Virus record (IMG/VR): IMGVR_UViG_3300031715_000003
Coordinates: 30,225-94,224 of that record
Length of the DNA: 64,000 nt
Origin: a virus
Reading direction: 5' to 3' (one strand)
Below are positions 30,017-63,987 of the stretch, in pieces. Each line of letters begins with the position of its first letter. Position 1 is the first letter of the stretch. Under the pieces are notes generated by a model that was not told the origin of the DNA, did not search any database, and saw nothing but the letters and a program-made list of their open reading frames with translations. Both the position numbers and the translations under genes were made by a program.

Positions 30017-30886
30017 ATGAAAACCTTTAGACTGATCGCTCTCTTGTCTCTGGCCAGCGCCATTGGCTCTGCCCAATTGAACGTGACATCGACCACGCTC
30101 GCGGCTGCCGTTACGTCGGCCAGTTGTCCGGCGGCTGGCTGCACCGTGACGCTTACCAGCGCCACTGGTGTCGTGGCCCAAGGTCCCAACAACCAAATCA
30201 ATACCGTGCTCTACGTGGATCGCGAACTGATGTGGGTCACCAACTTCATCAGCGGCACCACTTACGGAGTGCAACGCGGCAAAAACCAAACGCGCCCGTG
30301 GACTCACTCCAGTGGCGCGACCGTCTACCTCGGACCTCCCACCAACAACTTCCTCGCTAACAATGGGACTTCGGCGGAGACTTGGGGGAGTTGCGTGGCG
30401 ACCAACGAATACAGTCTCCCCAAGATCTATGTCACAACCGGAGACATCTTCCAGTGCTACAACGGTGCGAATGGAGGGAATTGGTTCTTGGTCGGGAGTG
30501 GCACCGGGGTGACGGTAGGGAAGTCTCTTTCGGCCTTCTGCACCGGAACGGTCGGTAGCGCCGAGACTGAATTCCTCAACGACGCGGCCTGCTCTGGAGC
30601 CACCGCAAACCTCGCGAAAAACGTAGTCGTAACCGGTGGAACGCTGGCAAACCTTAGGGTTTACAGCACTGCGGTCGCCGTCGGAGGAACCAACAAGGAC
30701 GTGATGACCGTTTTCAAGAACGGCAGCGCCACCACCATCACCTGTACGATTGCGGCTTCGGCCGCGACGTGCTCTGACTCGGGTCATTCCGTCATGACGG
30801 TACCGGGTGACGTCATATCGTTCCAATTCGTGACCGCCACTTCCGATACCGCCGCCAATATGGTGGCCTCAGTCGGTCTGTACTGA
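30017..30886 (+). CDS. Putative capsid decoration protein with Sec signal peptide
   Basis: MKTFRLIALLSLASAIGSA-Q; TTLAAAVT, VDRELM, VQRG; Cys pairs. Confidence 0.75.
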   Translation: MKTFRLIALLSLASAIGSAQLNVTSTTLAAAVTSASCPAAGCTVTLTSATGVVAQGPNNQINTVLYVDRELMWVTNFISGTTYGVQRGKNQTRPWTHSSGATVYLGPPTNNFLANNGTSAETWGSCVATNEYSLPKIYVTTGDIFQCYNGANGGNWFLVGSGTGVTVGKSLSAFCTGTVGSAETEFLNDAACSGATANLAKNVVVTGGTLANLRVYSTAVAVGGTNKDVMTVFKNGSATTITCTIAASAATCSDSGHSVMTVPGDVISFQFVTATSDTAANMVASVGLY

Positions 30887-30898
30887 CACACAAGGGGA

Positions 30899-30932
30899 CA
30901 GGGGGAAGACGCTTTCGAGCGTTCTCCCCCTG
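30899..30932 (+). terminator. Hairpin containing dispersed motif
   Basis: CAGGGGGAA...TTCTCCCCCTG; similar to E4 inner stem. Confidence 0.45.
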
Positions 30933-30945
30933 AAGGGCCAAATAA

Positions 30946-31380
30946 ATGAAAATGCTGATGCGAATCTGGTGCGGTGCGTTGCTGGCCTTCATGTTATTTG
31001 TAGTGGGGGTATCGGCCGAGCCGCAGCAGGGCAGGATCATCACCATCACGGCGGGAACGGCCATCAGGCTGATTCTTAACCCCACCACCGTCAAGCCGGT
31101 GCTGGCCAACTCCATGCTGATCCAGGTGCAGCATGCAGGAAGTGGCCTCGTTTATGTCCTCAACGCCAACCCGCAGCAAACATGCGCCCTGGGGAATGCT
31201 ACGACGACGGAGGTGGCGGAACTGGCCCCAGCTACATCGACAGAGCCCGGGGGATCATTCACGTTCCCTAGCAATGGGTCGGCAACCACCGGTTCCAGCG
31301 GGTTCGATGTCCGGTACTGGTGCGTCGATGGATCCAACAGCGGCGACACCGTGATTGTGTCGTGGGATGTAAGGAATTGA
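30946..31380 (+). CDS. Putative virion accessory protein with signal peptide
   Basis: Hydrophobic leader ending VSA; beta-rich. Confidence 0.7.
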   Translation: MKMLMRIWCGALLAFMLFVVGVSAEPQQGRIITITAGTAIRLILNPTTVKPVLANSMLIQVQHAGSGLVYVLNANPQQTCALGNATTTEVAELAPATSTEPGGSFTFPSNGSATTGSSGFDVRYWCVDGSNSGDTVIVSWDVRN

Positions 31381-31393
31381 GAGGAGAACGTTC

Positions 31394-31669: not shown

Positions 31670-31681
31670 CTGTTTCTGGGT

Positions 31682-32050
31682 ATGGCCGAGGAACTTCGTC
31701 CGCTGACATACGCGGAGCGCAAGCGCGAAGAGCGACGAGAGAAATGGGAGTTTGCTTTCGGCAAGGAACGGACAATGCCATTAAGGGAAAATGCCACGCC
31801 ACAGGAAGTCCATGAATACCCCAAGTGGGTTACGGACCGCCAGACTGGACTCCGCATCATCGTCCACAGCCGCGAGGAGGAGGAGAGGCGCGCGGAGGCT
31901 CCTTCTCCTTTTCCTCCCTCAAATGAGGCGCCAAAACAGGAAGCGGCCAAAACCGAACTCCCCCAGAAGAAGCGCCGGGGAGCACCGTTCCCGTTCCGCA
32001 CCAATGCTGGATATGAAGAAATGAAACGAGCGCAGGACGCGGCCCAGTGA
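31682..32050 (+). CDS. Hypothetical head-region protein (paralog of previous)
   Basis: EYPKWV...VHSREEE motif. Confidence 0.7.
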   Translation: MAEELRPLTYAERKREERREKWEFAFGKERTMPLRENATPQEVHEYPKWVTDRQTGLRIIVHSREEEERRAEAPSPFPPSNEAPKQEAAKTELPQKKRRGAPFPFRTNAGYEEMKRAQDAAQ

Positions 32051-32805
32051 GCATCACGTTCATACAGCTAGCGTCCGATGCCTTGAGCGATATCAAGCAA
32101 CTCGGTATCGGCCAAAGCCCCAGTCCGGAGCAAATTACGCAGGCGTTAAATTACGCCAACCGGATGCTCGGTAAGTGGAGCACGCAGCGGCTGTTCCTCT
32201 ACACCGTTGCCAAGTTACCGTTCGCCGCGACAGCCAACGTCCAGGACTACACCATCGGGCCGTCCGGTGCTACCTTTACCGCTGTGCGACCGACATTCGT
32301 GGAAGCCGCCCAGGTGACGCCACCGGGGAGTTCCCTCTACCTTCCGCTGAGCATCCTGGACATAACCAAATGGGGAGCCATCAGGGATAAGGGCGCTACG
32401 TGTAGCGCGTCAGGCGTTCCACAGGACGTCTGGATTGAGTACGCCTATCCAAACCTCGGATTCCATCTGTGGACCATTCCGTCCAACGCCTGCACCATCT
32501 ACCTGTCGGCATGGCAACCCCTGCCACAATTCGTAACGGCCTTTGACGTTTTGAGCTTTCCGCTTGGGTATGAGGAAGCCATACAGAAAAATCTTGCCGT
32601 AGAATTAAGTCCGGCGTATGACATGCCCGTGGACCCTACTCTTGCGGCCCTAGCGATGGACGGAATGGCGAAAATACAAGCCGTCAACCAGCAGAGCCTC
32701 GGTGGTGCGCTAGGCGATAGTCAACTCCTCACGGCCCCGAATCTTGCGAATCCAAATCCCACGGCGACAGCGGCCCCGCCGCCGGGCTCCCCCCAGAGGC
32801 AATAG
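32047..32805 (+). CDS. Head-tail adaptor, P22 gp4-like, copy 1
   Basis: AL..I..LG.GQSPS...ALNYANRML..W; FPLGYEEAIQKNLAVEL. Confidence 0.8.
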   Translation: MSITFIQLASDALSDIKQLGIGQSPSPEQITQALNYANRMLGKWSTQRLFLYTVAKLPFAATANVQDYTIGPSGATFTAVRPTFVEAAQVTPPGSSLYLPLSILDITKWGAIRDKGATCSASGVPQDVWIEYAYPNLGFHLWTIPSNACTIYLSAWQPLPQFVTAFDVLSFPLGYEEAIQKNLAVELSPAYDMPVDPTLAALAMDGMAKIQAVNQQSLGGALGDSQLLTAPNLANPNPTATAAPPPGSPQRQ

Positions 32806-32808
32806 CAC

Positions 32809-33624
32809 ATGGGGAACTACATCAGCCCTAGCGTCATCAGTCCCTCAAGCTACACTGTCACGGCTTGGACGCTACAGGACATGATCACGCAGGCCATGCG
32901 GATGGCCCACGCGCTGAAGATGCCAGGGCAAGGCGCCAGCCCCAGCGAACTTCAGGAGGGGCTGGACGTTTGCAACCATATGGTAGACGGCTGGAAGCTG
33001 GAAAACCTCCTGATCCCGTTCTTCATCCGGACAGTTGTTTTGCTACAGACCAACCAGAAGACCTACGGCGTCGGGCCCGGTCAGGACTGGGACATCGAAC
33101 GACCAGAGAAGATCCACTACGCCAGCTTCCTGATCAATCCGAGCACCAGCACGGAATGCGAAATCCCCATGGAAGTGGTGCTGACGTATCAGGAGTTCGC
33201 CGCCATCGTGGCGAAGAACGTTACGGCATCCATCCCGCTGGCTATCTATTACCAGAACACTCTCCCCTATGGGACGGCGCAACTGTGGCCGGTCCCGAGC
33301 GCCACCACGACCCAAGTAGCGCTATACACGCAGTGGGCTCTCCAGGAATTCAATACGGTGGACGACAATCTCGTGACGCCCAAGGGATTCCGCGAGATGA
33401 TCATGTACAACCTGGCGGTTCGGGTACGGCAACGCGCCAGCGAGACCAGAGTATTGGCGGTCCCGATGGACCCCACGGTTTACCAGATGGCGCTTGAGAC
33501 GAAACAGCGGGTGAAAAATCAGTTCATCAAGCCCATATACGTCGGGTCCGATCCGGCAGCGATCGGACGCCGGCAGGGCAGGTGGTACGGGGGCATGGCG
33601 CAAGCTTGGACGCCGTACAGTTAA
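32809..33624 (+). CDS. Head-tail adaptor, P22 gp4-like, copy 2
   Basis: GQGASPSELQEGLDVCNHMVDGW; PKGFREMIMYNLAVRV. Confidence 0.75.
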   Translation: MGNYISPSVISPSSYTVTAWTLQDMITQAMRMAHALKMPGQGASPSELQEGLDVCNHMVDGWKLENLLIPFFIRTVVLLQTNQKTYGVGPGQDWDIERPEKIHYASFLINPSTSTECEIPMEVVLTYQEFAAIVAKNVTASIPLAIYYQNTLPYGTAQLWPVPSATTTQVALYTQWALQEFNTVDDNLVTPKGFREMIMYNLAVRVRQRASETRVLAVPMDPTVYQMALETKQRVKNQFIKPIYVGSDPAAIGRRQGRWYGGMAQAWTPYS

Positions 33625-33635
33625 GAAAGGAACCT

Positions 33636-33884
33636 ATGGCTTGGATAGCGGTAGAGGCGGGTCGGCTCATCAACACGGAATTCCTCTCGAACGTGGAGTT
33701 CAACCATCGTCTGAAGCACGGGCACTGCATGTCGGCTGGCGTGGTCATTGCGAGCGATAGCCGGATGGCCTACGACTACTTCTGGCCGCTCTTTCAGAAG
33801 ACCATCGCCGAACAACAGGCAGCGTCCGAACAACAGGTGGCGGCCGAAAAACAGGTAGCAGAAGAGAAGGCCAAGGGGGCCTAA
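33636..33884 (+). CDS. Hypothetical protein
   Basis: AAGGA SD; MAWIAVEAGRLINTE. Confidence 0.6.
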   Translation: MAWIAVEAGRLINTEFLSNVEFNHRLKHGHCMSAGVVIASDSRMAYDYFWPLFQKTIAEQQAASEQQVAAEKQVAEEKAKGA

Positions 33885-33887
33885 CGA

Positions 33888-35402
33888 ATGGCGCAGTGGC
33901 CGGGATTCTGCGGGCCGTCCTACAAACTGGAGTCCCCCAACGGTTCTCCCGACGAGACCATCAACTTCTACACCGAGACGCTCGAGCGTGGACCACGCCA
34001 GGGACAAACTCGGCTACGCCAGATCCCCGGTCTATCGATACTGCCCGGCTTCGTGACGGAGAGCACCAACGGATTCCCTGCGGGCCCTATCCAAGCGCTG
34101 TATGCCAGCGCTGGTGGAGCACGACTCTTCGCCGTAGCGGGTGGTGGAGTCTTCGAGGTCTTTCAGCCGCCGGCCAATCCTCCCTATACGTTGCTCGGAA
34201 ATGTGGGGCTGGCGACCAATCCCGCCACGATGGCGGCCAACGGATTCCAGTTGGCGATCGCCAGCGGCGGCCAACTCTACATCACTAATCTTGGGACCAC
34301 AGGTCCGGGCGTCATCCCCGTGGTCGACACTACGGGGCAGGAAGTGGTGGCGACGGCCGTGAACGTCATTGATCAGTATTTCGTCATCAGCCAGCCCAAC
34401 ACCAAGATCGTGCAGATTTCGAATCTCGCTCCCAATGGAGGCATTTGGGATCCTGCCGATGAGGCGGAAAAGGAAGGCTACGCCGACAATATCCAGCGGG
34501 TGTGGGTCGACGCTCCGGGGGGAGAACTACTCTACCTACACGGCACCGACACGATGGAAATCTGGCAGGACACTGGCGGATTATTCCCGTTCCAGAGGAT
34601 TTCCGGATGCGTCTTCCCCGTGGGCTGCGATTCCGCTTGGTCGATCGCCGGCATCAATGGACTCCACTTCTGGCTGTGGCGAGGCCAGATTTGGGTGACG
34701 CAGGGGACGATGGCTCCGGTGGTCGTGAGCGACTGGGGAGTAGAACAGCAGATCAAGCAGTACAGTTGGAACGACTGGCTGAACGCGGAAGGCTTCAGCT
34801 ACCTGCAGGGCCATCACGTCTTCTACGTCATCTCCTTCCCGTTCATTGGGGAAACGTGGTGCCTGGACTTCACCGAAAAGGCGTGGCATAGGCGGCTGTA
34901 CTGGCAGAACGGAGTATGGACCCGCTACCGGCCGAGGGTTTACGCCAATGCTTTCGGACTCGACATCGTGGGAGATTACGCAACCAACATGCTGTACGTG
35001 CTGGACCCCACGGTAGCGACCGACGCCACGGTGAACGGCGTGACGGCTCCCCTGCGGCGCGAGCGCATCGCTCCCTATTTGACCAGCGGGATGACGAATG
35101 TGCGGCATAATCGTATGACGCTCGACATGGATACAGGTGTGGGGCTGCAGGTTCCGGTGGGGCACGTAGGGCAGAATCCACAGTGCCAGATGCGCTACTC
35201 CAAGGACCGAGGCAAGAACTGGAGCCTGTGGCGGCAAGACAGTATCGGGGCGGCAGGCTTGGATCAAACGCGCGTCTTCTGGCCGCAGATGGGGAGTTCA
35301 CGGATCGGCTTGACCGTGGACCTCGTCATTACAGATCCCGTCATCACCTCGATCAACGCTGCCTACATCGATGAGAATCCGGGGACGTGGCCACGCCCAT
35401 AA
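33888..35402 (+). CDS. Tail hub / packaged DNA stabilization protein, P22 gp10-like
   Basis: GFCGPSY...INFY; YLQGHHVFYVISFP...WH.R; DMDTGVG...MRYSKDRG. Confidence 0.9.
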   Translation: MAQWPGFCGPSYKLESPNGSPDETINFYTETLERGPRQGQTRLRQIPGLSILPGFVTESTNGFPAGPIQALYASAGGARLFAVAGGGVFEVFQPPANPPYTLLGNVGLATNPATMAANGFQLAIASGGQLYITNLGTTGPGVIPVVDTTGQEVVATAVNVIDQYFVISQPNTKIVQISNLAPNGGIWDPADEAEKEGYADNIQRVWVDAPGGELLYLHGTDTMEIWQDTGGLFPFQRISGCVFPVGCDSAWSIAGINGLHFWLWRGQIWVTQGTMAPVVVSDWGVEQQIKQYSWNDWLNAEGFSYLQGHHVFYVISFPFIGETWCLDFTEKAWHRRLYWQNGVWTRYRPRVYANAFGLDIVGDYATNMLYVLDPTVATDATVNGVTAPLRRERIAPYLTSGMTNVRHNRMTLDMDTGVGLQVPVGHVGQNPQCQMRYSKDRGKNWSLWRQDSIGAAGLDQTRVFWPQMGSSRIGLTVDLVITDPVITSINAAYIDENPGTWPRP

Positions 35403-35880
35403 TGGTGGATATGCGGAAATTCATTATCAAGCAACTGTTGAAGATCCTGAATAGCCAATGGTTCAACCAAAGCCCCTGCCGCTATGGATTCATCGGAAAC
35501 GTTGATGCCTTTTCCTACGAAAATCTTATGTATGAGGAAAAGGGTCGGCCGGGCATAACAGTAAAGACAATTCTCGCGGAAGCCGATGCTTTTCGGTCAT
35601 GCCCCATGAGGAAGGCAGGCGTGACCGTCATCGAGGATGGGGTCGCGCGCGAGGCCGACATCTGGGACCTCCACGAACTACGCAATATGGGAGTCGAACG
35701 AAAATGATCGGACAAGAGGAAGAAGACCGTATTCCCCGCGATCCCGATTATTACACCGATGACGAGATTGACGAACTGCTTTTGAAGGCCCACGCTCTGG
35801 GTTATTCGCTTGATCCCGGTAGCGAACTGGAGGAATTGACGATTCGCCAACTTGAAGTGCTGGTAATGAGGATTCAGTAA
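35402..35880 (+). CDS. Two small inserted hypothetical ORFs (35402-35707, 35704-35880)
   Basis: Coupled ORFs. Confidence 0.5.
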
Positions 35881-37556
35881 TGGGTGCCGGACCAATCCTC
35901 AGCGCCTACACGTTGCGCGCACCGTACTCCCCCACGCCAATCGTGGACCCTTCAACGGGTGTCGCCACGCCCCAGATGGACCTCTGGCTGCGAAACATCC
36001 AGCCCACTCTCCAGCAACTCTCGGGAGTCAGCGCCATTCAGTACGGTGTCCGAGGAAATGGAAAAGCTGACGACACCGCTGCAATCCAGGCCACCATCAA
36101 CCAAGTGGCGGCTAACGGTGGGGGTGTAGCGCTGCTGCCGGTCGGCACATTCAATATCGGGACCGTCACGTTTCCATCGGGCGACATCCCCATCACGCTG
36201 GCGGGCCAGGGGCCGGCGAGCATTATCTTGCGAGGCAAGCAAACCGGAGCCGGCCAGGGACTCCTCGACATCAGCGGTTCGAACGTCACGTTCCAGGACT
36301 TCCTGATCGACGGTGCCACCACGATGCCGCAGGGGCTGCATTACAACCAGGACTTTTTGGGCGTTGGCGGTAACGATCCAATGGCGTCCTCCCTCACGCA
36401 AAACACCTCCATCTGGGTCCACAGCAATGTCAGCGGGTTCCGCATGGACCGAGTGACGATTCAGCACACGGGGGGATATTCAGTTCTGCTAGATGCACGG
36501 TCCGGAACGATAGAACTGGTCGATATCGTGCAGTGTTGGTTCCAAAACAACCGGCCGTTCCTATTCGGCACCATCGGCAACCCCGCGATTTACGGATCGT
36601 GGGGAGGCGGCATTCTGGCTCATGGAGCCGGGCAGACTGCTGGATCGGGAGTGGTCCAAACCCTCCTGGTGGCGCTCTGCCAGTTCCAACGCAACACGGG
36701 CAATTGCCTGTGGAGCCATCTCTACGGGCTGAATGAACTGCATCAAAACTTTCGTTTCATCGGCAATCACTTTCTGGATTGCGGGCTGGACGGAATAGAA
36801 TTCGGGGGGGTTGACGGCGGATCCGCCAGCGCCAATGTCTTCAGGCGTGTGGGCTACATCTGCCTGGACGACACTTCACAATCGACTCCCCGATGGGACC
36901 CGGTCGCACCCGCCACCGCCATAGATTCGAGTGGGGTCGTCAAGGCCGTTGCGCTCACGGGGAACTCGTTCACATCGGTGAACGGCGGCGCGATGGATCT
37001 AGACGGCCATGGCCAGAGCGCCATTGTGGGGAATGTCGTGCGGGTGCCGTATTTTGGTGAGCCAGAATATGATGAAGACCAGATTCCACTGACTGGTCCG
37101 ACCAACAGCGGATCGGCCAGCTATGGCGTCAACATGAACAACACGAGCCAGACCGCTGAGGGTGCTGCAAATGTCGAAATCGTGGGGAATTCGTTCATCA
37201 ACTTGGCGGGCGGATCGATTCGCCTCTATGCGGCGCGGTTCTGTGCGGCTAAGGCCAACCTGATCGTGTCGCCGGATGCGCCTGCGAATCCGCCCGTAGC
37301 GCTCGGACCCGTGGGGCCGAATCCCAATCAGCGATGCCACGATAACCGCGTTGCCCACAACGACGTCAGCTACGCCCCAGCTTCGTCGGAGCCAGTGGTG
37401 TTCGAGGACGACACCATTTCGATGTTCATGTCGACCGAGAAGAATTATGTGTTCGGCAACCAGCCGATAACGCCATCGGGGTCCAACGCCTTCGAGTTTC
37501 AGCCAAGTTCGCATTCGGGAAGCCCCACTTACGCTCAAACCGTGTGGTTCCCATGA
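35880..37556 (+). CDS. Tailspike/needle with pectate-lyase-like beta-helix
   Basis: PIVDPSTG...W N-terminus; YGVRGNGKADDTAAIQ; parallel beta-helix repeats; no signal peptide. Confidence 0.8.
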   Translation: MGAGPILSAYTLRAPYSPTPIVDPSTGVATPQMDLWLRNIQPTLQQLSGVSAIQYGVRGNGKADDTAAIQATINQVAANGGGVALLPVGTFNIGTVTFPSGDIPITLAGQGPASIILRGKQTGAGQGLLDISGSNVTFQDFLIDGATTMPQGLHYNQDFLGVGGNDPMASSLTQNTSIWVHSNVSGFRMDRVTIQHTGGYSVLLDARSGTIELVDIVQCWFQNNRPFLFGTIGNPAIYGSWGGGILAHGAGQTAGSGVVQTLLVALCQFQRNTGNCLWSHLYGLNELHQNFRFIGNHFLDCGLDGIEFGGVDGGSASANVFRRVGYICLDDTSQSTPRWDPVAPATAIDSSGVVKAVALTGNSFTSVNGGAMDLDGHGQSAIVGNVVRVPYFGEPEYDEDQIPLTGPTNSGSASYGVNMNNTSQTAEGAANVEIVGNSFINLAGGSIRLYAARFCAAKANLIVSPDAPANPPVALGPVGPNPNQRCHDNRVAHNDVSYAPASSEPVVFEDDTISMFMSTEKNYVFGNQPITPSGSNAFEFQPSSHSGSPTYAQTVWFP

Positions 37557-37593
37557 AAATGATCTACACTTCAATTAAAGGAGAAATTCCAGA

Positions 37594-38145
37594 ATGACCC
37601 GTCAATTCCGGGCCGCGCTCATCGGCGTTGCCCTCATTGCTTTCTTCGCGGTGGTGGCGCACTACGCCCCGCACGTGGCCGCGCAGTCTGCCCCGTCCTT
37701 CAGCAACACCGGCTCGTTCGCGGCGGTAACGACGCGCGTCTGCAGCGATGTCGCTAACGTTGGCTCGCAATACACCCAAACCGTGAACGGCGGCTTGAGC
37801 TACCTCTGTCTGGAAACCGGAAACCCCGCCACGCTTGGAACGGCAGCATTCCAGTGGCTTCCATTTGTGGGGCAACAGGGTTACATTACGGGGGAGAACG
37901 GTGCCAACAACGCGATCGCCACCCCGGTGGGCGTGGGGCCGGCGCTCTCGCCCGGCACTATCCTCTACATTCTGCTGGCGCACTCCCTACAGGCTGGTGC
38001 CGACACGCTGGCGTACCAAGGCGGAACCGCGACCGCGATCAAGAGTCACCGCAACACGGCCAACAACATTGGAACGGCTTACGCCACGGGCGGCGTTATC
38101 CAATTGGAGTGGGACGGAACGCAGTTCGAGGATATGTCGCAATAA
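37594..38145 (+). CDS. Signal-peptide virion accessory protein
   Basis: Leader ending VAA-Q; C-domain paralogous to 56369-57118. Confidence 0.7.
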   Translation: MTRQFRAALIGVALIAFFAVVAHYAPHVAAQSAPSFSNTGSFAAVTTRVCSDVANVGSQYTQTVNGGLSYLCLETGNPATLGTAAFQWLPFVGQQGYITGENGANNAIATPVGVGPALSPGTILYILLAHSLQAGADTLAYQGGTATAIKSHRNTANNIGTAYATGGVIQLEWDGTQFEDMSQ

Positions 38146-40093: not shown

Positions 40094-40113
40094 TATAGTA
40101 CGAGGCGTGAAAC

Positions 40114-42569: not shown

Positions 42570-42578
42570 TAGTAACCG

Positions 42579-42770: not shown

Positions 42771-42814
42771 CTGACTTTAGGGTAAACGTAGCGCATCTGA
42801 CAAAATGGCAGAGC

Positions 42815-54943: not shown

Positions 54944-55986
54944 TGCAGATGAGGAGATCCATTACCCTAGCGTTGGCAGTTGGGCTTGCGGCCTACGCCC
55001 AGTACGTCCCTGTCCCATTTACCACCACCAGTTGTCTGGCGATCTCCCCGCCTGGCCCTGGCTGCGGGACCGGAACCAACACTATATTCCTGACATCCGC
55101 CAGCGGCACCTGGACGGTTCCGACCTGCTGGAACAATTCCAACAACTCGATTGAGGGAATTGGAGGAGGAGGAGGAGGTAATGGCGGTGGCTCTCCCGGC
55201 GTAGCGGGCGGAGGAGGAGGTGGGGAGTACGCCAAAGTCGTCAACCTCGCGCTCACGATAGGAGCCTCCATTCCCTACACGGTGGGGGCAGGAGGTGCCG
55301 GGGGAAACTCTGCCGGCAGCAACGGGGCCAACGGAGGCGCGACGTCTTTCAACACTACGACCCTCGTGGCACACGGCGGGGGCGGCGCCACCTCGTCTGC
55401 AGCGGGAGCAGGAGGAACTGGCGGCACCGGAACCACACTGCATAACGGCGGCTCCGGGGGAACAGCCGGGACCCACAGCGCTTTCTCCGGCGGCGGAGGC
55501 GCGGGCGGACCCAACGGTACGGGAGCGACAGGTGGCCCCTCCAATACTGTCGCCGTAGAAGCTGGAGCTGGCGGTGGAGGCGGTTCGGGAGGAGGGATGG
55601 CCGGCGGCGCTCCGTCCGCGAATAATGGAGGGGCTGGTGGTGCCAACTTCTCTGGAAGTGTGGCAGGTGGGGCTGGAGAGACCAGCGGCGGAGCGGCTGG
55701 AAACGGAGGGGGCGACGTCAACGGGGCCTCTGGGGGCGGTGGAGGCGGAGCCACATTTCTGATGCCTGGCAAGGGAGGATCTGGAAGAGAATGGGGCGCG
55801 GCCGGATCAGGCGGTGGCGGAGGCGGCGGCGGCGGAGCCAATTTCTTCGGGTCAGCCACTGGCGGCTCTGGCGGGTGTTTCGGCGGCGGAGGCGGATCCG
55901 GTTCATACGATAACGTGGACGGGGTTATGCCCGCCCCGGGAGGACCAGGCGCGCCTGGTTTGCTCGTAATAAAGTACACGAATTAG
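54943..55986 (+). CDS. Glycine-rich tail-associated protein with signal peptide
   Basis: Leader ending AYA-Q; GTWTVP...IGGGGGG...YTVGAGG...GLLVIKY. Confidence 0.8.
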   Translation: MQMRRSITLALAVGLAAYAQYVPVPFTTTSCLAISPPGPGCGTGTNTIFLTSASGTWTVPTCWNNSNNSIEGIGGGGGGNGGGSPGVAGGGGGGEYAKVVNLALTIGASIPYTVGAGGAGGNSAGSNGANGGATSFNTTTLVAHGGGGATSSAAGAGGTGGTGTTLHNGGSGGTAGTHSAFSGGGGAGGPNGTGATGGPSNTVAVEAGAGGGGGSGGGMAGGAPSANNGGAGGANFSGSVAGGAGETSGGAAGNGGGDVNGASGGGGGGATFLMPGKGGSGREWGAAGSGGGGGGGGGANFFGSATGGSGGCFGGGGGSGSYDNVDGVMPAPGGPGAPGLLVIKYTN

Positions 55987-55997
55987 AAGGAGAAAAG

Positions 55998-56366
55998 TTG
56001 AAACAGTTATTGTTCGTTTTGATGGCCGTGGCGGGATTCTCCCAGGAGTCTGGGGAGACCGCTCCAAAGCCAGAGGCCAAAAAGGAATACCTACTGACCA
56101 AAGAGGAATCGCTAACGGTGAAGCTCGATATCGCGCAGATCCAACTCCTCAATGAGAAATACAAGATTGATGACTACAACAAGGAAATAAAGCCCTGGAG
56201 CGCGGAACAGGAAGATGTCATCACGAAAGCCTGCATGAAGGTAGGGGTCGCCAAGGATAAGATCCGGAGCGACTGTGGGGTCTCGTTGGGGGCGAAGGAT
56301 CAGGCCGGAAACGAACTCCCCGCGAAGGTGTGGAAGATCGAGAAGGTGACGGCTCCGGCCAAATAA
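55998..56366 (+). CDS. Secreted helical protein (possible fibre chaperone)
   Basis: Leader ending GFS-Q; one Cys pair. Confidence 0.7.
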   Translation: MKQLLFVLMAVAGFSQESGETAPKPEAKKEYLLTKEESLTVKLDIAQIQLLNEKYKIDDYNKEIKPWSAEQEDVITKACMKVGVAKDKIRSDCGVSLGAKDQAGNELPAKVWKIEKVTAPAK

Positions 56367-56368
56367 AT

Positions 56369-57118
56369 ATGCGGTGGATCGCTGCAATTTGTCTGACTGG
56401 CGGCCTTGGGGCGCAATCCCTCACGACCGTAACCGACACCATCACCTGGGCCAACGGCGTGATGCCGAACGGCTACGCAACGATCCGTTGGCAACGATTC
56501 CTCAATGCTTCGAAACAGGTGGTGGCACCTAATTCCGTCGGCCTCGTTGTCCCGGTCACGAGTGGGGCCTTTAGCGTGCTGTTGACACCGACCGACACGG
56601 CAGTCCCGGTGGGGAGTTGCTATTCGGTAGCGTACTCCCTGAATGGAACCAACTATACCCGCACCTGGAATGTCCCTACCACTACGAACCAGGTCGGGTT
56701 GAGCGTTGTGGAGAGCGATACGCCCTGCACTCCCCAAACGGCCGCCGCGGTGGCGCTCTCGCAGTTGACCAACTCAGGCGCCAAGACCGGACAGGTCATC
56801 GCCTGGAACGGTGCATATTGGGCCCCGGCGCTCGGTAGCGGAAACTACGTCGGCACGGAGACTGGCACCAATAACGCATGGGCCATAGCGTTGACCGATG
56901 CCTCGGGGAATGCCGTCTCGCTGGTGGCCGGACTCGAGGTATGCGTGCAGTCGACCCACACGCTTCAGGCTGGGGCCAATACGCTGTCGTTCAACGGCAC
57001 GGCCAAGAACATCAAGAGCCACCTCAACAGCGGGAACAACATTGCGACCGCGCACTCGGGGCCGGGAATCGGATGCTTCATGTACGACGGAACGGGCTGG
57101 GAGGATTTAAGTGAATAA
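56369..57118 (+). CDS. Signal-peptide tail/virion accessory protein
   Basis: Leader ending LGA-Q; GAFSVLLTPT; GAKTGQVIAWNG; C-domain shared with 37594. Confidence 0.75.
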   Translation: MRWIAAICLTGGLGAQSLTTVTDTITWANGVMPNGYATIRWQRFLNASKQVVAPNSVGLVVPVTSGAFSVLLTPTDTAVPVGSCYSVAYSLNGTNYTRTWNVPTTTNQVGLSVVESDTPCTPQTAAAVALSQLTNSGAKTGQVIAWNGAYWAPALGSGNYVGTETGTNNAWAIALTDASGNAVSLVAGLEVCVQSTHTLQAGANTLSFNGTAKNIKSHLNSGNNIATAHSGPGIGCFMYDGTGWEDLSE

Positions 57119-60100
57119 AACATATACGGCGCTGCTGCTTCTGGCGGCCGGCTCCTACGGACAGGTCATCAACAATGGAGGAGGCGGGGGGGGAGGCGGA
57201 ACTCCCTTTATACCGGGTGGCCAAAATGGTGGCGTCTACCAGAATGTGGGGGGGAATCCTCAGGCAACCGCTACAGGAGGTGCCGGAACTCTCTGTTTCG
57301 TTGAAACTAATGGTGGAATACCGACGTGGGGTTCGTGCTCCGGCTCAGCCGCCACGGCGTGGAGTTCCCTCACGAATCCCTCCGCCAACGAAGCGCTAAA
57401 TATGGGGACCAACACCACCACCTTTACGCTCGGGACAGGCACGGGAACCAATAGCGGCTTCCTCTTCCAGGACACGACTGGCAATACGGGGACCGGCCCC
57501 GTTCTTCAGGTCGCAACTATTGGGACATCCACGATGTTGCCTGTTCAGATCACGGCCAAGGGAACGGCCAATGGCATCAACATGACGGCCGCAGGGCTCC
57601 TCCAAGCGATCGGCACTGGCGGCATCAACGCCACCCAAATCGCCGGCGCCGCACTCGGAACCACGACAGCCACCTCCGGCAACCTACTGATCGGCTCCGG
57701 TTCGCAATGGGTGACAGAACCACTCTCCCAGGACTGCACACTCTCCAGCGCGGGAGTCATTACGTGCCTCAAGACCAACGGAACGCTATTCACCGGAGCC
57801 GCAACGATGTCGCTCCCGGTATCGGTAGCCAACGGAGGGACGGGCGTCTCTACGCTGCCAGGCACCAGTGGTCAGTGCCTCATCAATAACTCGGGAGCGT
57901 TTGGAGCAGTGGCGTGCGGTGGCCTCACGCTTCAGACCAATGGGACCAACAACTCCAGCCAGACGACGCTCAACATACAGAACGGCACGGCAGCAAACGG
58001 CGTGAACGTCATGTTCAGTAATCCGAGTGCAGGCAACGTTAAGCCAGCGGTATTATTCACCAACAGTTTGAGCAGTTCATCAATCCTGGCTACGGATTCC
58101 AGCGGAAATGTCTCTACGCCAGCCAGTCCGGCCTGCAGCACTTATTTTTCGGGATGCAGCGGCGGAGGCGGCATCACTCAGTTGACGAGCGATGTTACGG
58201 CAGGTCCAGGAAGTGGATCTCAGGCCGCAACGATTCAGCCAGGTGTCGTTACGCTCGCGAAGATGGCTAATCTCACGGCCAACAGCATCATCGGGAACAA
58301 CAACGGATCTCCCGCCACGCCTATCGCGTTAACGGAGACGCAGGTCACGGCCATGTTGAATCCCTTCAGCAGCAGCCTCAAGGGTGTTGCCCCGGCATCC
58401 GGCGGAGGTACGACAAACTTCTTGCGCGCGGACGGGACGTGGGCGACCCCTCCAGGTGGAGGATCGGGCTGCAATCCCTCGGGCGGTGCCGGGGTTGTTC
58501 AGGCGTCCAACGGAAGCGGTGCGTGCCAGAACACCAGCATTACCGACAACGGGACTACGGTCAGCACGACAGAACCTATTAGCGCTGGTGGGACTATTAC
58601 GGCAGGCGGCTCAGGAGCGGGCGCTTTCGTTTTCCCCCAAGGGACCACGCAATCGGCCGCGAGCGGAACGTTTGTATTGCAAGCCCCACCAACGATCACG
58701 ACGCCCTATGAGTTGACGAGTTTCACAGCGCCGGGAACGGGATTACAATTTTGGACCAACACTAGCGGCAATATGCAAGCATCGTTGGTTACCTCAAGCG
58801 CAGCATGCTCGACATACTTCACGGGCTGTAGTGGAAGCACTGGAGTCTCCTCACTGAATACCTTGACTGGTGCGCTCACTATCGCGGCTGGTACCAATAT
58901 CACGGTCACGCCTTCCGGGGGCAATACCTTGACGATCGCGGCAGCAGGTAGCGGAGGAAGCGGCCTAATCAACACCGTAGCGACGGACTTCAGTATGACG
59001 GTTACCAGCGGAACGGTCCTAACGATGAGCGCCGGCACTTACGGCATCGGCTACGCGCAATACACCACTTTCGGGAGTACGACGTATACCCTATACCAGC
59101 GCACAATTTCCACAATTTCCTCAGCCACGCAAGCCGTCCTCACGCTGTCCTCGGCCCTTGCCAACTCTATCGCTGTCGGGGACACCTACTACGTGAGCGG
59201 GGCCACAGGGAGTGGATGCACGGGGCTGAATGGGCTCCAGACCGTGGTGAACATCGGCGGGGGCGGAACCCTCATCACCATCAACTACAACTCGATGGGC
59301 TGCACCTATGGAGCTTCCAGCGCGACATTCGGTGCGAATCCAGGCGCATCAGGAACTGGATACATCTACGGCGATAAGCTGGGCAACCTCACCATTATGA
59401 TGCCTGCAAGCGCCGGGATTTTAGTGAGCCCATCTGCTGGAATCTCGATCCAATCGGCCACTCCTGGATTCGCCGCCGGTAGTTGGCCAATCTCTCAATT
59501 CACGCTGAACAGCACGGGAAATGGCAATTGGGCGACCGCAGTCGATAAGCGCGTCTTTGCGGAAACCACCGCCCTCATCGCGTCCACCGGAATGCTGCTG
59601 AATGAAGCGGGCGGAGTCTGGACCGTAGGGATAGACCCGAGCGTAGTGCCGGAATTGGGTGCGGGCAACATTTGGACCGGATCAAGCGATTGCAGCGGAT
59701 GTGTCTATGCGGCCCCAATGCCGGTACTAGCGAGCGCTCCTGTGGCTTGTGTGGTGGGGCAGTATTACTTCAACACCGTAACCACTACGGGAAATTCCTG
59801 TATAGCAGCTAATACGTGGGGTGCGTCTCTTACAGAAAGCGCCGCTCCTATCGTCTTATCAAATAGTAGTGCGACGTCTGCCGTCACGCTGGCGACCTCT
59901 TCGATAGCTAGTGGAGACTATCTCATCACCTATGGGTTAGACCTTCATACACCCTGCACGACAGGAACTGGGCAGTTGTATCTCTCTATTGCATACGGTT
60001 CTAATGCCGCGCGAACGATCAAAACAGGAGACTGGGCATTGACGGCGACGCAGGGCGCTTCGGTACCGTTTAGTGGAGTCCTGCCTATTCATGTGGTAAC

Positions 60101-60212
60101 TGGGACAGCCGTAACCATTACTCCGACTCTAGATGCTACCGCTCCTAATGCCGGAGCTTGTACGACTGGTACGGCGACGTGGGATGGAAAGATCTGGATG
60201 GTGGGGAGCTAA
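57111..60212 (+). CDS. Long tail fibre/adhesin-like protein with signal peptide
   Basis: Leader ending SYG-Q; LPVSVANGGTG, VTLAKMAN, FLRADGTW, VSSLNTLTGA fibre motifs; many Cys. Confidence 0.85.
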   Translation: MNKTYTALLLLAAGSYGQVINNGGGGGGGGTPFIPGGQNGGVYQNVGGNPQATATGGAGTLCFVETNGGIPTWGSCSGSAATAWSSLTNPSANEALNMGTNTTTFTLGTGTGTNSGFLFQDTTGNTGTGPVLQVATIGTSTMLPVQITAKGTANGINMTAAGLLQAIGTGGINATQIAGAALGTTTATSGNLLIGSGSQWVTEPLSQDCTLSSAGVITCLKTNGTLFTGAATMSLPVSVANGGTGVSTLPGTSGQCLINNSGAFGAVACGGLTLQTNGTNNSSQTTLNIQNGTAANGVNVMFSNPSAGNVKPAVLFTNSLSSSSILATDSSGNVSTPASPACSTYFSGCSGGGGITQLTSDVTAGPGSGSQAATIQPGVVTLAKMANLTANSIIGNNNGSPATPIALTETQVTAMLNPFSSSLKGVAPASGGGTTNFLRADGTWATPPGGGSGCNPSGGAGVVQASNGSGACQNTSITDNGTTVSTTEPISAGGTITAGGSGAGAFVFPQGTTQSAASGTFVLQAPPTITTPYELTSFTAPGTGLQFWTNTSGNMQASLVTSSAACSTYFTGCSGSTGVSSLNTLTGALTIAAGTNITVTPSGGNTLTIAAAGSGGSGLINTVATDFSMTVTSGTVLTMSAGTYGIGYAQYTTFGSTTYTLYQRTISTISSATQAVLTLSSALANSIAVGDTYYVSGATGSGCTGLNGLQTVVNIGGGGTLITINYNSMGCTYGASSATFGANPGASGTGYIYGDKLGNLTIMMPASAGILVSPSAGISIQSATPGFAAGSWPISQFTLNSTGNGNWATAVDKRVFAETTALIASTGMLLNEAGGVWTVGIDPSVVPELGAGNIWTGSSDCSGCVYAAPMPVLASAPVACVVGQYYFNTVTTTGNSCIAANTWGASLTESAAPIVLSNSSATSAVTLATSSIASGDYLITYGLDLHTPCTTGTGQLYLSIAYGSNAARTIKTGDWALTATQGASVPFSGVLPIHVVTGTAVTITPTLDATAPNAGACTTGTATWDGKIWMVGS

Positions 60213-60215
60213 ATC

Positions 60216-61343
60216 ATGAAACTACTATTCGTTGTTGCACTTTACCCCGTGTTCCTGTTGGGTCAGAATGCCGCTTCTGGAACAGCTATGGGAAGCCCGA
60301 GCGGTACCGGGGCAGCTAATTTACATCTTACCAATATCGTAGACACGGCTATTACACAGCCGCTAATAACTGCCCCTGACCTTAGTAGCCTGTGGGTGGC
60401 AAACGGTGGGATTATAACCGGGGCTAGTGGCACAAACAGGCTTGTAGTCCAGAACTCCTCTTTAGACGCTTCCGGTATGAGCGCACCAGGAGTAACGCAG
60501 TTCGTTGGAACAATTGTTAATTCCACGTCACCTGACCCTAATGGTTATTGGGGACTTTATGCAGAGACATTGATTCCCACCACGAGCACCGTTAATTATA
60601 CTGGGTCAGATTATCTAGCACTCTATGGAGAATTCGATCACTTCGGAACCGGAAACGTGAGTAACGGAGTGGGTGTGGATGCGGAGTCATATGTAGAGGC
60701 TGGAGGAACCGCTACTAGCTTAGTAGGTCTTGAAGCGTTTTCTGGCAATTATGGAACTGGTCTAGTTACAGAGGCGGATGCTGTATACGCTGCCGTAAAC
60801 GGACCAGGCCCAATTACTACCGGTATAGGCGTGCACATAGACGCACCTGTAGCCGGTGGGGCTCCAGTGAATCTGGTGGGTTTACAGATTGAGAATCAAA
60901 CATCCGGGACGGGTACTAATTTTGCAATCAAGACAGGACTCGGAAAGGTACAATTCGGAGATGCGTTAGCGGTAACCGGTGCTTTCACGGTCGGAGCAGG
61001 GGCACCTCTTCCACCATGCGCGGACGCTGGAGGATCTCACCTGAACTGGACTAGCACAGGCGGTTTCGCGTGCGGAATAACCGTGGGCAGCAACCCGAAG
61101 GGCACGCTTTCGTGGGATTTTGGAGCGCTAAACGATGGGTCATGCAACAGCAAGACCTTGCCGTTGGGAGGAGCCTCATTAGGAGACCCGATCACCCCGG
61201 GATTTCCGGCAATTGCTTTCGCGGGTGCGATGACAATGTTTGTGAGCGCTATAGATACGGTGCAAGTAACGGTCTGCAATTTCTCTGGAAGTACTTCGGC
61301 CGATCCTGGAATATTAGCATTTATCGCAGAGGATACAAAATGA
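60216..61343 (+). CDS. Signal-peptide fibre-like protein
   Basis: Leader ending LLG-Q; beta-solenoid-like; WDFGAL...GASLGD...VSAIDTVQV. Confidence 0.75.
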   Translation: MKLLFVVALYPVFLLGQNAASGTAMGSPSGTGAANLHLTNIVDTAITQPLITAPDLSSLWVANGGIITGASGTNRLVVQNSSLDASGMSAPGVTQFVGTIVNSTSPDPNGYWGLYAETLIPTTSTVNYTGSDYLALYGEFDHFGTGNVSNGVGVDAESYVEAGGTATSLVGLEAFSGNYGTGLVTEADAVYAAVNGPGPITTGIGVHIDAPVAGGAPVNLVGLQIENQTSGTGTNFAIKTGLGKVQFGDALAVTGAFTVGAGAPLPPCADAGGSHLNWTSTGGFACGITVGSNPKGTLSWDFGALNDGSCNSKTLPLGGASLGDPITPGFPAIAFAGAMTMFVSAIDTVQVTVCNFSGSTSADPGILAFIAEDTK

Positions 61344-62938
61344 AGTCGTTAGTCATATTATTTACTTGTACCTGGTGTTGCTGTGCTCAGATACCAACTC
61401 TTGGCCTCAAGGTGCAATATGATGGCGTCACAGTAGGGAGTGGGGCGCTGACGGATCTTTCTGGTAATGGAAATAACTGCACCCTAACTGGCACAACACA
61501 GGTGGCGCAGGGAACCACCTTCAACGGCACAAGTGATATTTGCCAGTACACACCTGTTCTATCTGGGAATACTGACTTCACGATGCTTATTATAATGACT
61601 GGCTCCAATAATAATATCGTGTGGGAAGAAGCCGATTCCGCTAACGCTAATCACGCGCGCATGGGGCCTCAAGGAAACATTTCTGAATTGGTTGGTAGTG
61701 GAGGGTCTGCTGCTGTGCCGAACAACTTTTTGGCGCACTATGTGAATGGCGAATACCACGGCTATATCTTCCAGAGAGCCGGACGAAGCCTAAAATCGGG
61801 AAACATAGAGTCACCTTACTCCGTAACGTTGGACCTTGGAGGTAACCCGACTTTCACGGCTACCTGCGCCACCATTGGAGCACAGGGTTTTGGTGCTGGA
61901 TGCACAAGCCACAATGTCTACTGGGCGGGAACGATGGCTTATTTTCTTCTCTACGCGCGCGCTCTGTCCTTGAGCGAGATTCAGGCGGCTTATACGGCGA
62001 TTCAGGCAGCGGTTGTATCGCGACCGGTATTTATTCAGGATTATCACGCGTCCTTCCCTGTAACTGGCACGGTATATCAGAGACAGGGAGTGATGATTGA
62101 ATCTGGTCAACCGATAGAACCTACTATCGTTTGGGACTACACGGCTAATATCTGCAAAATGTGGATGTCAAGTGGAAGTAACATCGCATACTCAACATCT
62201 CCGGACTGTAAGAGCGCCTGGGCGACACCTACAACAGTGCTCAACGGTTATGGGGCCTCTTACGTTATACGTGTTGATTCTACGCATTATAAGATGTCAG
62301 CCCTGAACCGGTCCACTCTTGTAATAGACACCCTTACTTCATCGGACGGCCTAACCTGGACAGTATTAACCGCTGGCGCGATTCCTTTAGGTAGCTCAGG
62401 AGCGTGGGACAGCAATACAGTATATAACAGCGCGTGGTTGCGAGTTGACGCAACGCATTCGTATATGATCTATGAGGCTAAGGGGCCTTTAGGGATATTT
62501 CAATGCGGTGGCGCTACCTCGTCAGATGATGGAGCGTCTTGGACAAAAGTATCGGCCAACCCAATCATAGGTATCGGAGGAAATTGCAGCTATCCAATGC
62601 TATGGCAGTCACCTTCAGGACATTGGTATATGTGGGGTGGTCCGAATATATCAGGAGCATCGGGGAATGGCATGACTCGCTGGGATGCCTCCTCATTCAA
62701 TTCATTTTGGACGCCTATGCCGATGCCTCAATTTTTAGGGACTGCGCCGGATGAAGCGGTAGGATCATCAGGGCAAGCAGCCGACGTGATGCTAATGGGA
62801 GGTCCTACCGGAAATCAGACGTACTTATTCTATTCAGCGGTAATCTCGGGCGTTCAAGCCATAAAGTTGGCAATCGCCCAGATGCCTATGTCTCAATTAG
62901 TTCTTACCTCAGAAGGAGCAACATCCAGTGTTCCGTAA
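61340..62938 (+). CDS. Secreted LamG/ConA-like plus beta-propeller glycosidase-like protein
   Basis: Leader ending CCA-Q; DLSGNGN, YARALSLSEI; Asp-box-like SSDGLTW, SSDDGASW. Confidence 0.75.
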   Translation: MKSLVILFTCTWCCCAQIPTLGLKVQYDGVTVGSGALTDLSGNGNNCTLTGTTQVAQGTTFNGTSDICQYTPVLSGNTDFTMLIIMTGSNNNIVWEEADSANANHARMGPQGNISELVGSGGSAAVPNNFLAHYVNGEYHGYIFQRAGRSLKSGNIESPYSVTLDLGGNPTFTATCATIGAQGFGAGCTSHNVYWAGTMAYFLLYARALSLSEIQAAYTAIQAAVVSRPVFIQDYHASFPVTGTVYQRQGVMIESGQPIEPTIVWDYTANICKMWMSSGSNIAYSTSPDCKSAWATPTTVLNGYGASYVIRVDSTHYKMSALNRSTLVIDTLTSSDGLTWTVLTAGAIPLGSSGAWDSNTVYNSAWLRVDATHSYMIYEAKGPLGIFQCGGATSSDDGASWTKVSANPIIGIGGNCSYPMLWQSPSGHWYMWGGPNISGASGNGMTRWDASSFNSFWTPMPMPQFLGTAPDEAVGSSGQAADVMLMGGPTGNQTYLFYSAVISGVQAIKLAIAQMPMSQLVLTSEGATSSVP

Positions 62939-63377
62939 GCTTCTTTATGCGTTTCTTGCATTTCCTCTATTGGCTCAACCGCCCACTATTCGTGGGACGC
63001 TCGGCAGCGGATACGTGTTGCTCGGAAAACTGGTGTCCGCAAATCTAAACGTCACTACCGATCAGGCCATCACGGTCACTATTCCAGGAGGAGCAAGCAA
63101 GTACCAAGTGCAGAGCGTCACAATTACGAATGCCTCGACATCGTTGGGCGCGGGCCTCGCGGTGGGGGCGATATACACGGCGGCCTCCAAGGGCGGAACT
63201 GCGCTGTATTCAGCGGCTACAGTCTACACGAGCCTAACGGCAGCGACCGCGATTTATAACCCGGCCATCACAATAGCCACGTCCGCCAATGCGACAACGC
63301 TCTACTTCTCGCTCACGACGGCGAATGGATCGGCGGCCACTGCGGATGTGTACGTGTTCGGAACTCCTTTGCCATGA
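62928..63377 (+). CDS. Signal-peptide virion accessory protein
   Basis: Leader ending LLA-Q; ANLNVTTDQAI...LYFSLTTA...ATADVYVFG. Confidence 0.75.
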   Translation: MFRKLLYAFLAFPLLAQPPTIRGTLGSGYVLLGKLVSANLNVTTDQAITVTIPGGASKYQVQSVTITNASTSLGAGLAVGAIYTAASKGGTALYSAATVYTSLTAATAIYNPAITIATSANATTLYFSLTTANGSAATADVYVFGTPLP

Positions 63378-63987
63378 GAAATACAAAACTGAAGGTCATC
63401 TCGTTATTGATACTCGTTGCATTTCCGACTACGGCTAAACGAAGCGGCGGCGGCAATCCAACGCCGTGCTCGCCGTGCGTGCTCTCACTGGTCGCGAAAG
63501 ACTGGGAGCTGTCCACCTGGGTCTCCTCAGTGCCGACAATCCCCGTGAAGGACACCTCAACTGGCGCGTTGGAGTTCTCGTTCCCGCAGGCGTCTACAAA
63601 CACTTGGGCTGCGTATCTAACCTATTACACGGCCAAGCCCTACGACATCAGCGCCAATCATACGCTCTCGACTACGGTACAAGTTGACGTAACGGGTTCG
63701 CCGACATTCAACTACATGAGCGAAAGCTTCAACACCTGCGTGGTTCCGGCAAGCGCACGCCCGATGATCTGGGGCGCTGGCACGACGGCTCTTCCCGATG
63801 GCCGGTGGTGGTCGGATAACGTGGTCTATACGATAGTGCCCGGCACGGACACTCTAACGGTATCGCTCGACCCGAACATAAATTCGTGGTCCAACTCGAA
63901 TGGACAGATAGCAACCGAGGATGCCGATACGCTGGCGGCGTTTCAAGCGGCGCTCAAGAGCACGCAGTACTTGGCGCTGACATTCGG
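63374..63987 (+). CDS. Secreted carbohydrate-binding-like protein, truncated at contig end
   Basis: Open frame from ATGA overlap; MRNTKLKVISLLILVAFPTTA leader. Confidence 0.6.

Follow-up and report, generated by a model that had tools for sequence, protein, structure and literature searches.

Predicted signal peptides on a P22-type tailspike and a coat-adjacent protein, and a possible periplasmic route to the virion of a tailed phage

The stretch of DNA analyzed here, called the window, is the last 64 kb (64,000 nucleotides (nt), positions 30,225 to 94,224) of a 94,224-nt viral contig, IMG/VR record IMGVR_UViG_3300031715_000003, which carries the genome of a P22-type podovirus. Twenty genes of this genome, named here after their first position in the window unless the contig is mentioned, encode proteins with N-terminal leaders of the Sec type, and two of them, the putative tailspike or fibre gene 52517 and the gene 30017 next to the coat gene, are the main subjects of this study. 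We propose, with the chances for and against about evenly balanced, that the outward-facing gear of this phage is exported by Sec, matured in the periplasm and joined at lysis to particles built in the cytoplasm. In the textbook scheme, the assembly of tailed phages is wholly cytoplasmic. The two genes, with a slash marking the predicted cleavage site, are:

52517..54943, plus strand: tailspike or fibre of 808 amino acids (aa), with a 20-aa leader (AAA/Q) and 14 Cys
30017..30886, plus strand: coat-adjacent leader protein of 289 aa (GSA/Q) with 8 Cys

The 52517 protein consists of the leader, a P22 gp9-type head-binding domain (about residues 28-112), three fibre-module repeats and a C-terminal domain. 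Its family profile matches PDB 7eeq_A ('Tailspike head-binding domain') at 4.9e-10 and the tail spike chains 9vyg_m-o at 6e-8. An AlphaFold2 (AF2) model of residues 1-130, with a predicted local distance difference test score (pLDDT) of ~80 in the domain and a low-confidence leader, found 9vyg_m of Pan3 as its best Foldseek match (1.2e-5; root mean square deviation (rmsd) 2.2 Å over 84 residues) and also superposes on Pam1 (7eeq), P22 (1lkt, 8tvr, 8u10) and Sf6 (7sg7), with rmsd ranging from 2.2 to 3.8; all of its top 20 fold matches are head-binding domains. The gp10-like protein 33888 matches chains of both of these solved structures (7eeq, 9vyg), and the 52517 gene follows the ejection genes and precedes the lysis genes, in the same order as in phages PBR31 and P26218. 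Profile and fold thus agree with an earlier reading made from the sequence only, which had placed the leader of 52517 directly before a podophage attachment domain, and they predict a particle-attachment domain of the P22 gp9 type at the mature N-terminus.

The 52517 family offers a natural experiment, in which one head-binding domain occurs with and without a leader. Among 114 homologues in a set of 5.8 billion proteins, 51 have the N-terminal domain of 52517, and of these 47 have a leader (40 by rule, seven more by eye), the remaining four being truncated. The Gln at position +1 of the predicted site is nearly invariant in a 20-sequence alignment of the family (A1), and likewise in a second alignment (A3). 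The leaderless relatives (n = 11) are the tail spike of Xanthomonas phage PBR31, gp26 of Rhodoferax phage P26218 and proteins from nine IMG/VR loci, and their Met1 aligns with Q21 of 52517. Indeed, for 30 of the 40 homologues whose leader was called by rule, the predicted mature residue 1 lies no more than three residues from the position of Met1, with a mode of 0, so that cleavage would restore the canonical N-terminus. A Cys-flanked insertion of three residues (YTC..CPG) is found in 33 of the 51 N-domain homologues, whereas none of the 11 leaderless relatives has it (YTY..TP), and this leader-linked Cys pair, at about residues 48 and 54 of 52517, is the pattern expected if gained export allowed a disulfide to form. 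Known head-binding domains of this type (P22 1lkt/8tvr, Sf6 gp14N, Pam1 7eeq, Pan3 9vyg) share with that of 52517 the fold, detectable sequence homology, the place at the mature N-terminus, the gene position and a gp10-like hub partner, but these spikes start at Met1 without a leader and are made in the cytoplasm, and they have neither the 20-aa signal peptide predicted for 52517 nor its Cys-flanked insertion. Three predictions support 52517 as a virion protein: profile and fold identify the head-binding domain, the mature N-terminus corresponds to Met1 in the leaderless relatives, and the gene stands before the holin gene.

The TTG start of 52517 is preceded by a ribosome-binding site, GGGAGGAGG; a leaderless isoform started internally was considered and dropped, the GTG at codon 16 having no ribosome-binding site. 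The module repeated in the middle of 52517 is common to large leader-bearing bacterial proteins (Micavibrio, Bdellovibrio, Bradyrhizobium and others), and the bacterial loci that have it (L003, L011, L017, L021, L025 and L049) look like exported fibres of the MAT type described below. Around the leaderless tailspikes themselves, the gene directly downstream of that of PBR31, orf035 (L155:8102-8927), annotated as 'putative structural protein', has a signal-peptide-like leader, and so has the gene two on from that of P26218, P26218_24 (L156:7708-8218).

The second protein, 30017, is tied to the particle by its place. A homologue of it lies directly after the P22-type coat gene in 18 of 18 IMG/VR loci, in the order portal, scaffold, coat, 30017-like, adaptors and gp10-like, and it is better conserved than the coat itself (43-54% identity, with coat identity down to 25%). 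All 18 coat-linked homologues have a leader, 17 of them with Gln at +1, and either 6 or 8 Cys; among the best 150 of 1125 homologues of 30017, a leader was found in 99 and a site before Gln in 75. In an AF2 model of 30017 (pLDDT 86.7), a beta domain at the N-terminus is followed by a C1q/TNF-like jelly-roll knob at the C-terminus; the fold of this knob matches the tips of phage fibres (Agrobacterium phage 7-7-1, phi812), BclA/ExsFA, C1q and Bdellovibrio Bd2439. In the homologue P0273, a 30017-type N-domain is joined to the C-terminal tip shared by two other leader proteins, 37594 and 56369, a join that, as far as sequence can tell, follows the anchor-plus-swappable-tip logic of receptor-binding proteins. 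On this model 30017 is a candidate trimeric head fibre or decoration protein, and its place behind the coat gene in all 18 loci, together with the predicted fibre-tip fold, also supports it, indirectly, as a virion protein. The term 'decoration' used in the sequence-only reading stands for 30017 by position, and 'head fibre' may be the better word; for 30946 it found no support. A search of the ESM Atlas returned only low-score viral clusters.

Leaders were called by a rule-based scan (not by SignalP), by inspection by eye and by conservation in homologues, and the scan asked for a positive n-region, an uncharged hydrophobic h-region and small residues at -3/-1 within about 14-35 residues. The 12 open reading frames (ORFs) for which leaders had been claimed from the sequence all show by eye a basic n-region followed by a hydrophobic core free of charges and by small residues at -3/-1. 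The claim was understated, as the genome contains 20 leader genes. The residue after the site is Gln in 10 of the 12, just as had been read, and in 16 of the 20 genome-wide; the exceptions among the 12 are 30946 (VSA/E) and 63374 (TTA/K), and six of the eight further genes, found by the scan or by eye, have Gln. The scan called 18 of the 20 leaders, missing 56369 and contig 4689 and scoring 63374 only from an alternative TTG start. The eight genes beyond the 12 are:

contig 182-4528, plus strand: leader giant of 1448 aa, after 63374
contig 4689-7664, plus strand: leader giant of 991 aa, beta-helix plus immunoglobulin (Ig) domains, likewise after 63374
contig 10318-10512, minus strand: leader gene
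contig 10589-11356, minus strand: leader gene
contig 11747-12286, minus strand: leader gene
contig 12283-12948, minus strand: leader gene
window 4471-4719, minus strand: leader gene
window 15355-16098, plus strand: leader protein of 247 aa (AFG/Q)

From 52517 round the circular junction to contig 7664, 11 leader genes follow one another without interruption, and the next gene, at contig 7700-7981, encodes the holin (phrog_689). With ~12% of the other genes being leader-like, such a run would arise by chance with a probability that we estimate to be of the order of 1e-10. Published phage genomes are typically reported to have 0-2 signal peptides (PMC5723332). Leader-bearing giant fibres are also found in the viral loci L053, L054 and L070, and in L070 a leader protein is encoded directly after the capsid gene. 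In the present genome no leader was found on the portal, scaffold, coat, adaptors, gp10-like protein, 35880 spike or ejection proteins, so that the absence already read for the portal, coat, gp4/gp10-like proteins and 35880 extends to the scaffold and ejection proteins. These leaderless modules are:

25184..29983, plus strand: head core with P22-type portal, scaffold and coat (Pfam P22_portal 2e-138, P22_CoatProtein 6.5e-22)
32047..37556, plus strand: tail core with two paralogous adaptor-like proteins, gp10-like head-closure protein (33888) and beta-helix spike (35880)
39107..49132, plus strand: ejection proteins including a 2001-aa giant

The leader proteins are also rich in Cys, and their Cys counts are in line with the pairing noted from the sequence. 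Cys makes up 1.94% of the mature leader proteins and 1.04% of the other proteins (Fisher p = 1e-7), and 16 of the 20 leader proteins have an even number of Cys, as do 33 of the 58 others; all three called ejection proteins (39107, 40950 and 43361) have zero Cys. No C-terminal sorting signal (PEP-CTERM or transmembrane tail) was seen, and Pfam scans gave no domain of the type IX secretion system (T9SS).

Long open frames arise in high-GC DNA, and the hydrophobic N-termini might be artefacts of annotation with the true starts lying downstream, for which 63374 provides a case in its alternative TTG at codon 12 with a ribosome-binding site. Most leader starts, however, are preceded by a ribosome-binding site of the AAGGAG or GGAGG type or overlap with the preceding stop codon, and apart from this TTG the in-frame downstream ATG, GTG and TTG codons in the 12 ORFs have no such site; moreover, the leaders are conserved at the protein level in distant homologues. 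Misplaced starts, allowed for in the sequence-only reading, are therefore so improbable that they need hardly be considered, and by sequence comparison the leaders are conserved protein features, which persist in homologues even as their own sequences diverge. Because they are canonical, conserved in two large homologue families, followed by Gln at +1 and accompanied by enriched and mostly even Cys, the prediction that they are signal peptides for Sec and signal peptidase I is well supported, and a reading of these proteins as exported strongly so.

The route that we propose would start from leaders adapted to a host in which Gln is the first residue of most exported proteins. The heads, the hub of the tail and the ejection proteins would be made and assembled in the cytoplasm, and 52517, 30017 and most of the 11-gene fibre/enzyme cluster would be translocated to the periplasm. 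There the exported proteins would be cleaved, disulfide-bonded and trimerized, and the Gln would be cyclized to pyroglutamate by a glutaminyl cyclase of the host. The exported gear would then meet the particles once the inner membrane is opened by the holin, whose gene directly follows the cluster. In vitro, adding tailspikes can complete P22 heads, which makes such late docking physically plausible. The idea that the appendages are exported and dock on particles, raised in the sequence-only reading, is thus partly supported: the leaders, their conservation, Gln at +1 and Cys speak for export through Sec and signal peptidase I, and that the proteins really leave the cytoplasm, acquire pyroglutamate and disulfides and dock during or after lysis is inferred.

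Several points weigh against this route. First, the phage has the leaderless spike 35880 and could be infectious without the exported proteins. Second, heads and fibres made in separate compartments would need efficient docking within a short lysis interval. Third, we found no description in the literature of exported tailspikes or fibres, or of a periplasmic route, for tailed phages. Fourth, 30017 resembles no known decoration protein; searches of Pfam, PHROG, PDB and GenBank phages gave no match, and its fold matches are fibre-tip knobs. Fifth, the N-domain of 52517 is found in none of 401 sampled genomes of Acidobacteriota, a possible host phylum, and the C-terminal domain of 30017 in one of them by a weak match, a negative search that neither supports nor excludes this phylum as the host of a virulent phage.

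The leader proteins may instead be exported without entering the virion and act from inside on the envelope of the infected cell, as depolymerases of capsule or exopolysaccharide (EPS) easing release, in receptor masking or superinfection exclusion, or as free adhesins. The beta-helix and Ig domains of contig 4689-7664, the BNR-like signal in 61340, the leaderless spike 35880 and the position of four minus-strand leader genes outside the late operon fit this explanation, and so do the leaders on the bacterial exported fibres that have the middle repeat of 52517. MAT fibres of Bdellovibrio bacteriovorus have a signal peptide, a conserved beta-rich N-domain of ~130 aa and swappable tips including TNF-like knobs (PMC10769870), which is the exported, trimeric, phage-like layout predicted for 30017; they are, however, bacterial adhesins displayed by the predator cell, neither encoded by a phage nor attached to a capsid. 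On the other side, the particle-attachment domain of 52517 sits exactly at the predicted mature N-terminus, 30017 is fixed beside the coat gene in all 18 loci and better conserved than the coat, and leader proteins of a cultured phage, Cellulophaga phage phi18:3, have been found in virions by tandem mass spectrometry (MS/MS). We regard a role outside the virion as a rather unlikely explanation for the leader proteins in general. It is likely for some of the 20 and unlikely for 52517 and 30017; the four minus-strand genes at contig 10.3-12.9 kb, and perhaps others, may encode such exported proteins.

The phi18:3 case (NC_021794) is, in our analysis, the only precedent for leader-bearing virion proteins on particles of tailed phages. 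Its gp085, gp086 and gp087 have leaders that end before Gln and carry MS/MS-based annotations as virion or tail proteins, and its portal and eight other virion proteins have no leader. It resembles the present phage as a cultured podovirus with three consecutive large virion-annotated proteins that bear such leaders, but its host belongs to Bacteroidota, its proteins have no sequence similarity to those described here, and its record annotates virion presence, not cleavage of the leaders. Filamentous phages also have virion proteins with cleavable signal peptides, pIII and pVIII, which are inserted or exported before assembly. However, these phages assemble by membrane extrusion without lysis, and the present phage is icosahedral, DNA-packaging and tailed.

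A further explanation is that the leaders are translated without export during infection, with Sec shut off or saturated late, or with the leader acting as a membrane tether or a delay, and that the fibres are added to particles inside the cytoplasm, either still bearing the leader or after some other protease has removed it. This fits the textbook view of cytoplasmic assembly, and in P. gingivalis phages some capsid 'signal peptides' have been suggested to be removed by the prohead protease (PMC10367356). It leaves unexplained, however, the conservation of the -3/-1 site and of Gln at +1 in hundreds of homologues, the restriction of the Cys pair to leader-bearing forms and the doubled Cys content with even counts; furthermore, other phages have functional versions of this domain that lack a leader. 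We consider it improbable. Still less can be said for the lysogen surface proteins suggested as an alternative in the sequence-only reading, i.e., morons for lysogenic conversion expressed from a prophage. Lambda lom and bor are exported proteins encoded among late genes, but in the present genome, circular and 98% complete by the CheckV estimate, no tyrosine integrase (PF00589) or serine recombinase (PF00239) was found, and within the late operon the leader genes stand close together and are coupled in translation. Prophage copies are essentially absent from the 401 Acidobacteriota genomes, and 30017 is invariably present among the related loci (18 of 18) and not variable. This alternative is thus weakened and very improbable, and the phage is probably virulent because neither type of recombinase was found.

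The route to the periplasm that we favor assumes a host that places Gln after its signal peptidase site. Such a Q-rule, with Gln at +1 of the signal peptidase I site, has been published for Bacteroidetes (PMC5837995, PMC10653852), in groups that did not include Acidobacteria in the former analysis (PMC5837995), and five Q-rule proteins of unknown function have been reported in P. gingivalis phages (PMC10367356). The proteins described here share with these the Gln at +1 and, probably, the copying of the signal style of the host by phage genes. On the other hand, the P. gingivalis phage proteins have been read as host-modifying (PMC10367356), and in contrast to the Bacteroidetes case the present phage uses Shine-Dalgarno sites heavily and is not enriched in the O-glycosylation sequon of Bacteroidota, for which 25 occurrences were observed and 20 ± 4 expected. 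A Shine-Dalgarno motif precedes 73% of its called genes, a figure somewhat inflated as the gene caller favors the motif, against 16% of random positions and two of 34 genes of the Cellulophaga phage. Shine-Dalgarno sites are rarely used by Bacteroidota, and their frequency argues against a host of this phylum.

The same rule-based scan was applied to the bacterial samples, in which Acidobacteriota were represented by two metagenome-assembled genomes (MAGs), G001 (L135-L154) and G002 (L194-L200). Among leader-like proteins, a valid site before Gln was found in 29 of 65 in the Bryobacteraceae MAG and 8 of 22 in the Acidobacteria gp2 MAG, and in 3 of 32 in proteobacterial loci, 4 of 39 in candidate phyla radiation (CPR) loci and 1 of 14 in Bradyrhizobium, a small sample that gives no sign of the rule; when pooled, the counts are 37 of 87 for Acidobacteriota and 8 of 85 for the controls. 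A Bacteroidetes MAG sample of 31 kb was too small to serve as a positive control. The Bryobacteraceae genome, one of the two MAGs, also encodes a plant-type glutaminyl cyclase (PF05096, 2e-50). Thus, in these sequences, the Q-rule appears to hold in Acidobacteriota too. Weak evidence comes from the sole organism-named match to the 52517 N-domain, a 3.6-kb contig that is binned to an Acidobacteria gp2 MAG and encodes a leader of its own. The genome would fit a Shine-Dalgarno-using diderm host with the Q-rule, probably outside Bacteroidota and possibly of Acidobacteriota. No phage-encoded DsbA, signal peptidase or glutaminyl cyclase was found in the genome.

More broadly, and at somewhat less than even confidence, we suggest that tailed phages of at least two Q-rule phyla, i.e., Bacteroidota and a Shine-Dalgarno-using lineage that is possibly Acidobacteriota, complete virion assembly beyond the cytoplasm. 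In this scheme, tailspikes and head or accessory fibres that are Sec-exported, capped with pyroglutamate and disulfide-bonded would attach when the holin fires, and the gain of a leader on the gp9-type domain would have come with the disulfide loop. What is new here is the leader on a structurally defined head-binding domain in a P22-type podovirus, the correspondence between Met1 and the Gln at +1 with its leader-linked Cys pair, the constant place of a leader-bearing gene beside the coat gene, and the evidence that both the leader phenomenon and the Q-rule extend beyond Bacteroidota. If this is true, completion of such virions depends on Sec, signal peptidase, Dsb and glutaminyl cyclase of the host, which would be new host factors and targets of defence, and the receptor-binding proteins of these phages misfold when made in the cytoplasm, a concern for structural studies and for the engineering of phages. 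Such genes would likewise be mislabeled by annotation pipelines in which a signal peptide counts against a structural function. With the Q-rule in Acidobacteriota, the leader style could help to predict the hosts of uncultured phages from soil.

The other leader proteins among the 12 are as follows:

30946..31380, plus strand: 144 aa, VSA/E, between coat and adaptor genes; no family match
37594..38145, plus strand: 183 aa, 30-aa leader (VAA/Q), inside the tail module; AAAGGAG site
54943..55986, plus strand: 347 aa, AYA/Q, coupled to the 52517 stop; Gly-rich and fibre-like; phrog_863 'tail fiber assembly' at 1.9e-11
55998..56366, plus strand: 122 aa, GFS/Q, charged and probably helical
56369..57118, plus strand: 249 aa, LGA/Q; same C-terminal tip as 37594
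57111..60212, plus strand: 1033 aa, SYG/Q, poly-Gly linker after the leader, 20 Cys
60216..61343, plus strand: 375 aa, LLG/Q
61340..62938, plus strand: 532 aa, CCA/Q; weak BNR/sialidase-like signal
62928..63377, plus strand: 149 aa, LLA/Q, no Cys
63374..63987, plus strand: TTA/K, crossing the circular junction, 232 aa in all

The tip domains of 37594 and 56369 are 41% identical, and homologues bear this tip on leader-bearing or leaderless coiled-coil N-termini; this spread over different N-termini indicates, at the level of sequence, module swapping. Residues 52-172 of 57111 are 57% identical to the leader-bearing giant fibre of L070. For 55998, a periplasmic helper of the fibres is our guess.

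The contig ends in a 13-nt remnant of an Illumina adapter:

window 63988..64000: adapter remnant at the contig end

The preceding 100 nt are an exact copy of contig 1-100, and this end repeat makes the record a complete circular (or terminally redundant) genome of ~94,111 bp. IMG/VR lists the record as linear despite the repeat, and ORF 63374 closes at 232 aa over the junction. The genome also encodes a large terminase. Single-protein scans gave no close relatives, and the identity of the portal to that of the nearest cultured phages is only ~30-35%.

In the tail core, 33888 matches phrog_578 at 7.7e-57, together with 7eeq_1 and 9vyg_M, and the beta-helix spike 35880 matches tail-spike phrogs. 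The paralogues at the adaptor position (32047-32805 and 32809-33624, plus strand) match phrog_12985 at 1.6e-26 and 8.5e-25, and related loci have up to four copies of a gene of this type. The ejection-type giant of 2001 aa (window 43127-49132, plus strand) contains a His_Phos_1 histidine phosphatase domain (3.9e-18) at residues 453-600; from the called GTG start at 43361 it has 1923 residues, none of which is Cys. In the early region, window 1074-1715 (minus strand) encodes a Tad4 domain (Type I Thoeris inhibitor, Pfam 2e-31) and is a candidate anti-defence gene. A GroES/Cpn10-like domain (1.3e-11) is encoded at window 14037-14684 (plus strand), and phi18:3 encodes two GroES-like proteins. The four minus-strand leader genes adjoin genes for a membrane protein and for a TnpB of the IS605 type, the latter at contig 13738-14883 (minus strand; OrfB_IS605 3.6e-22) with a Cas12f-like TNB domain.

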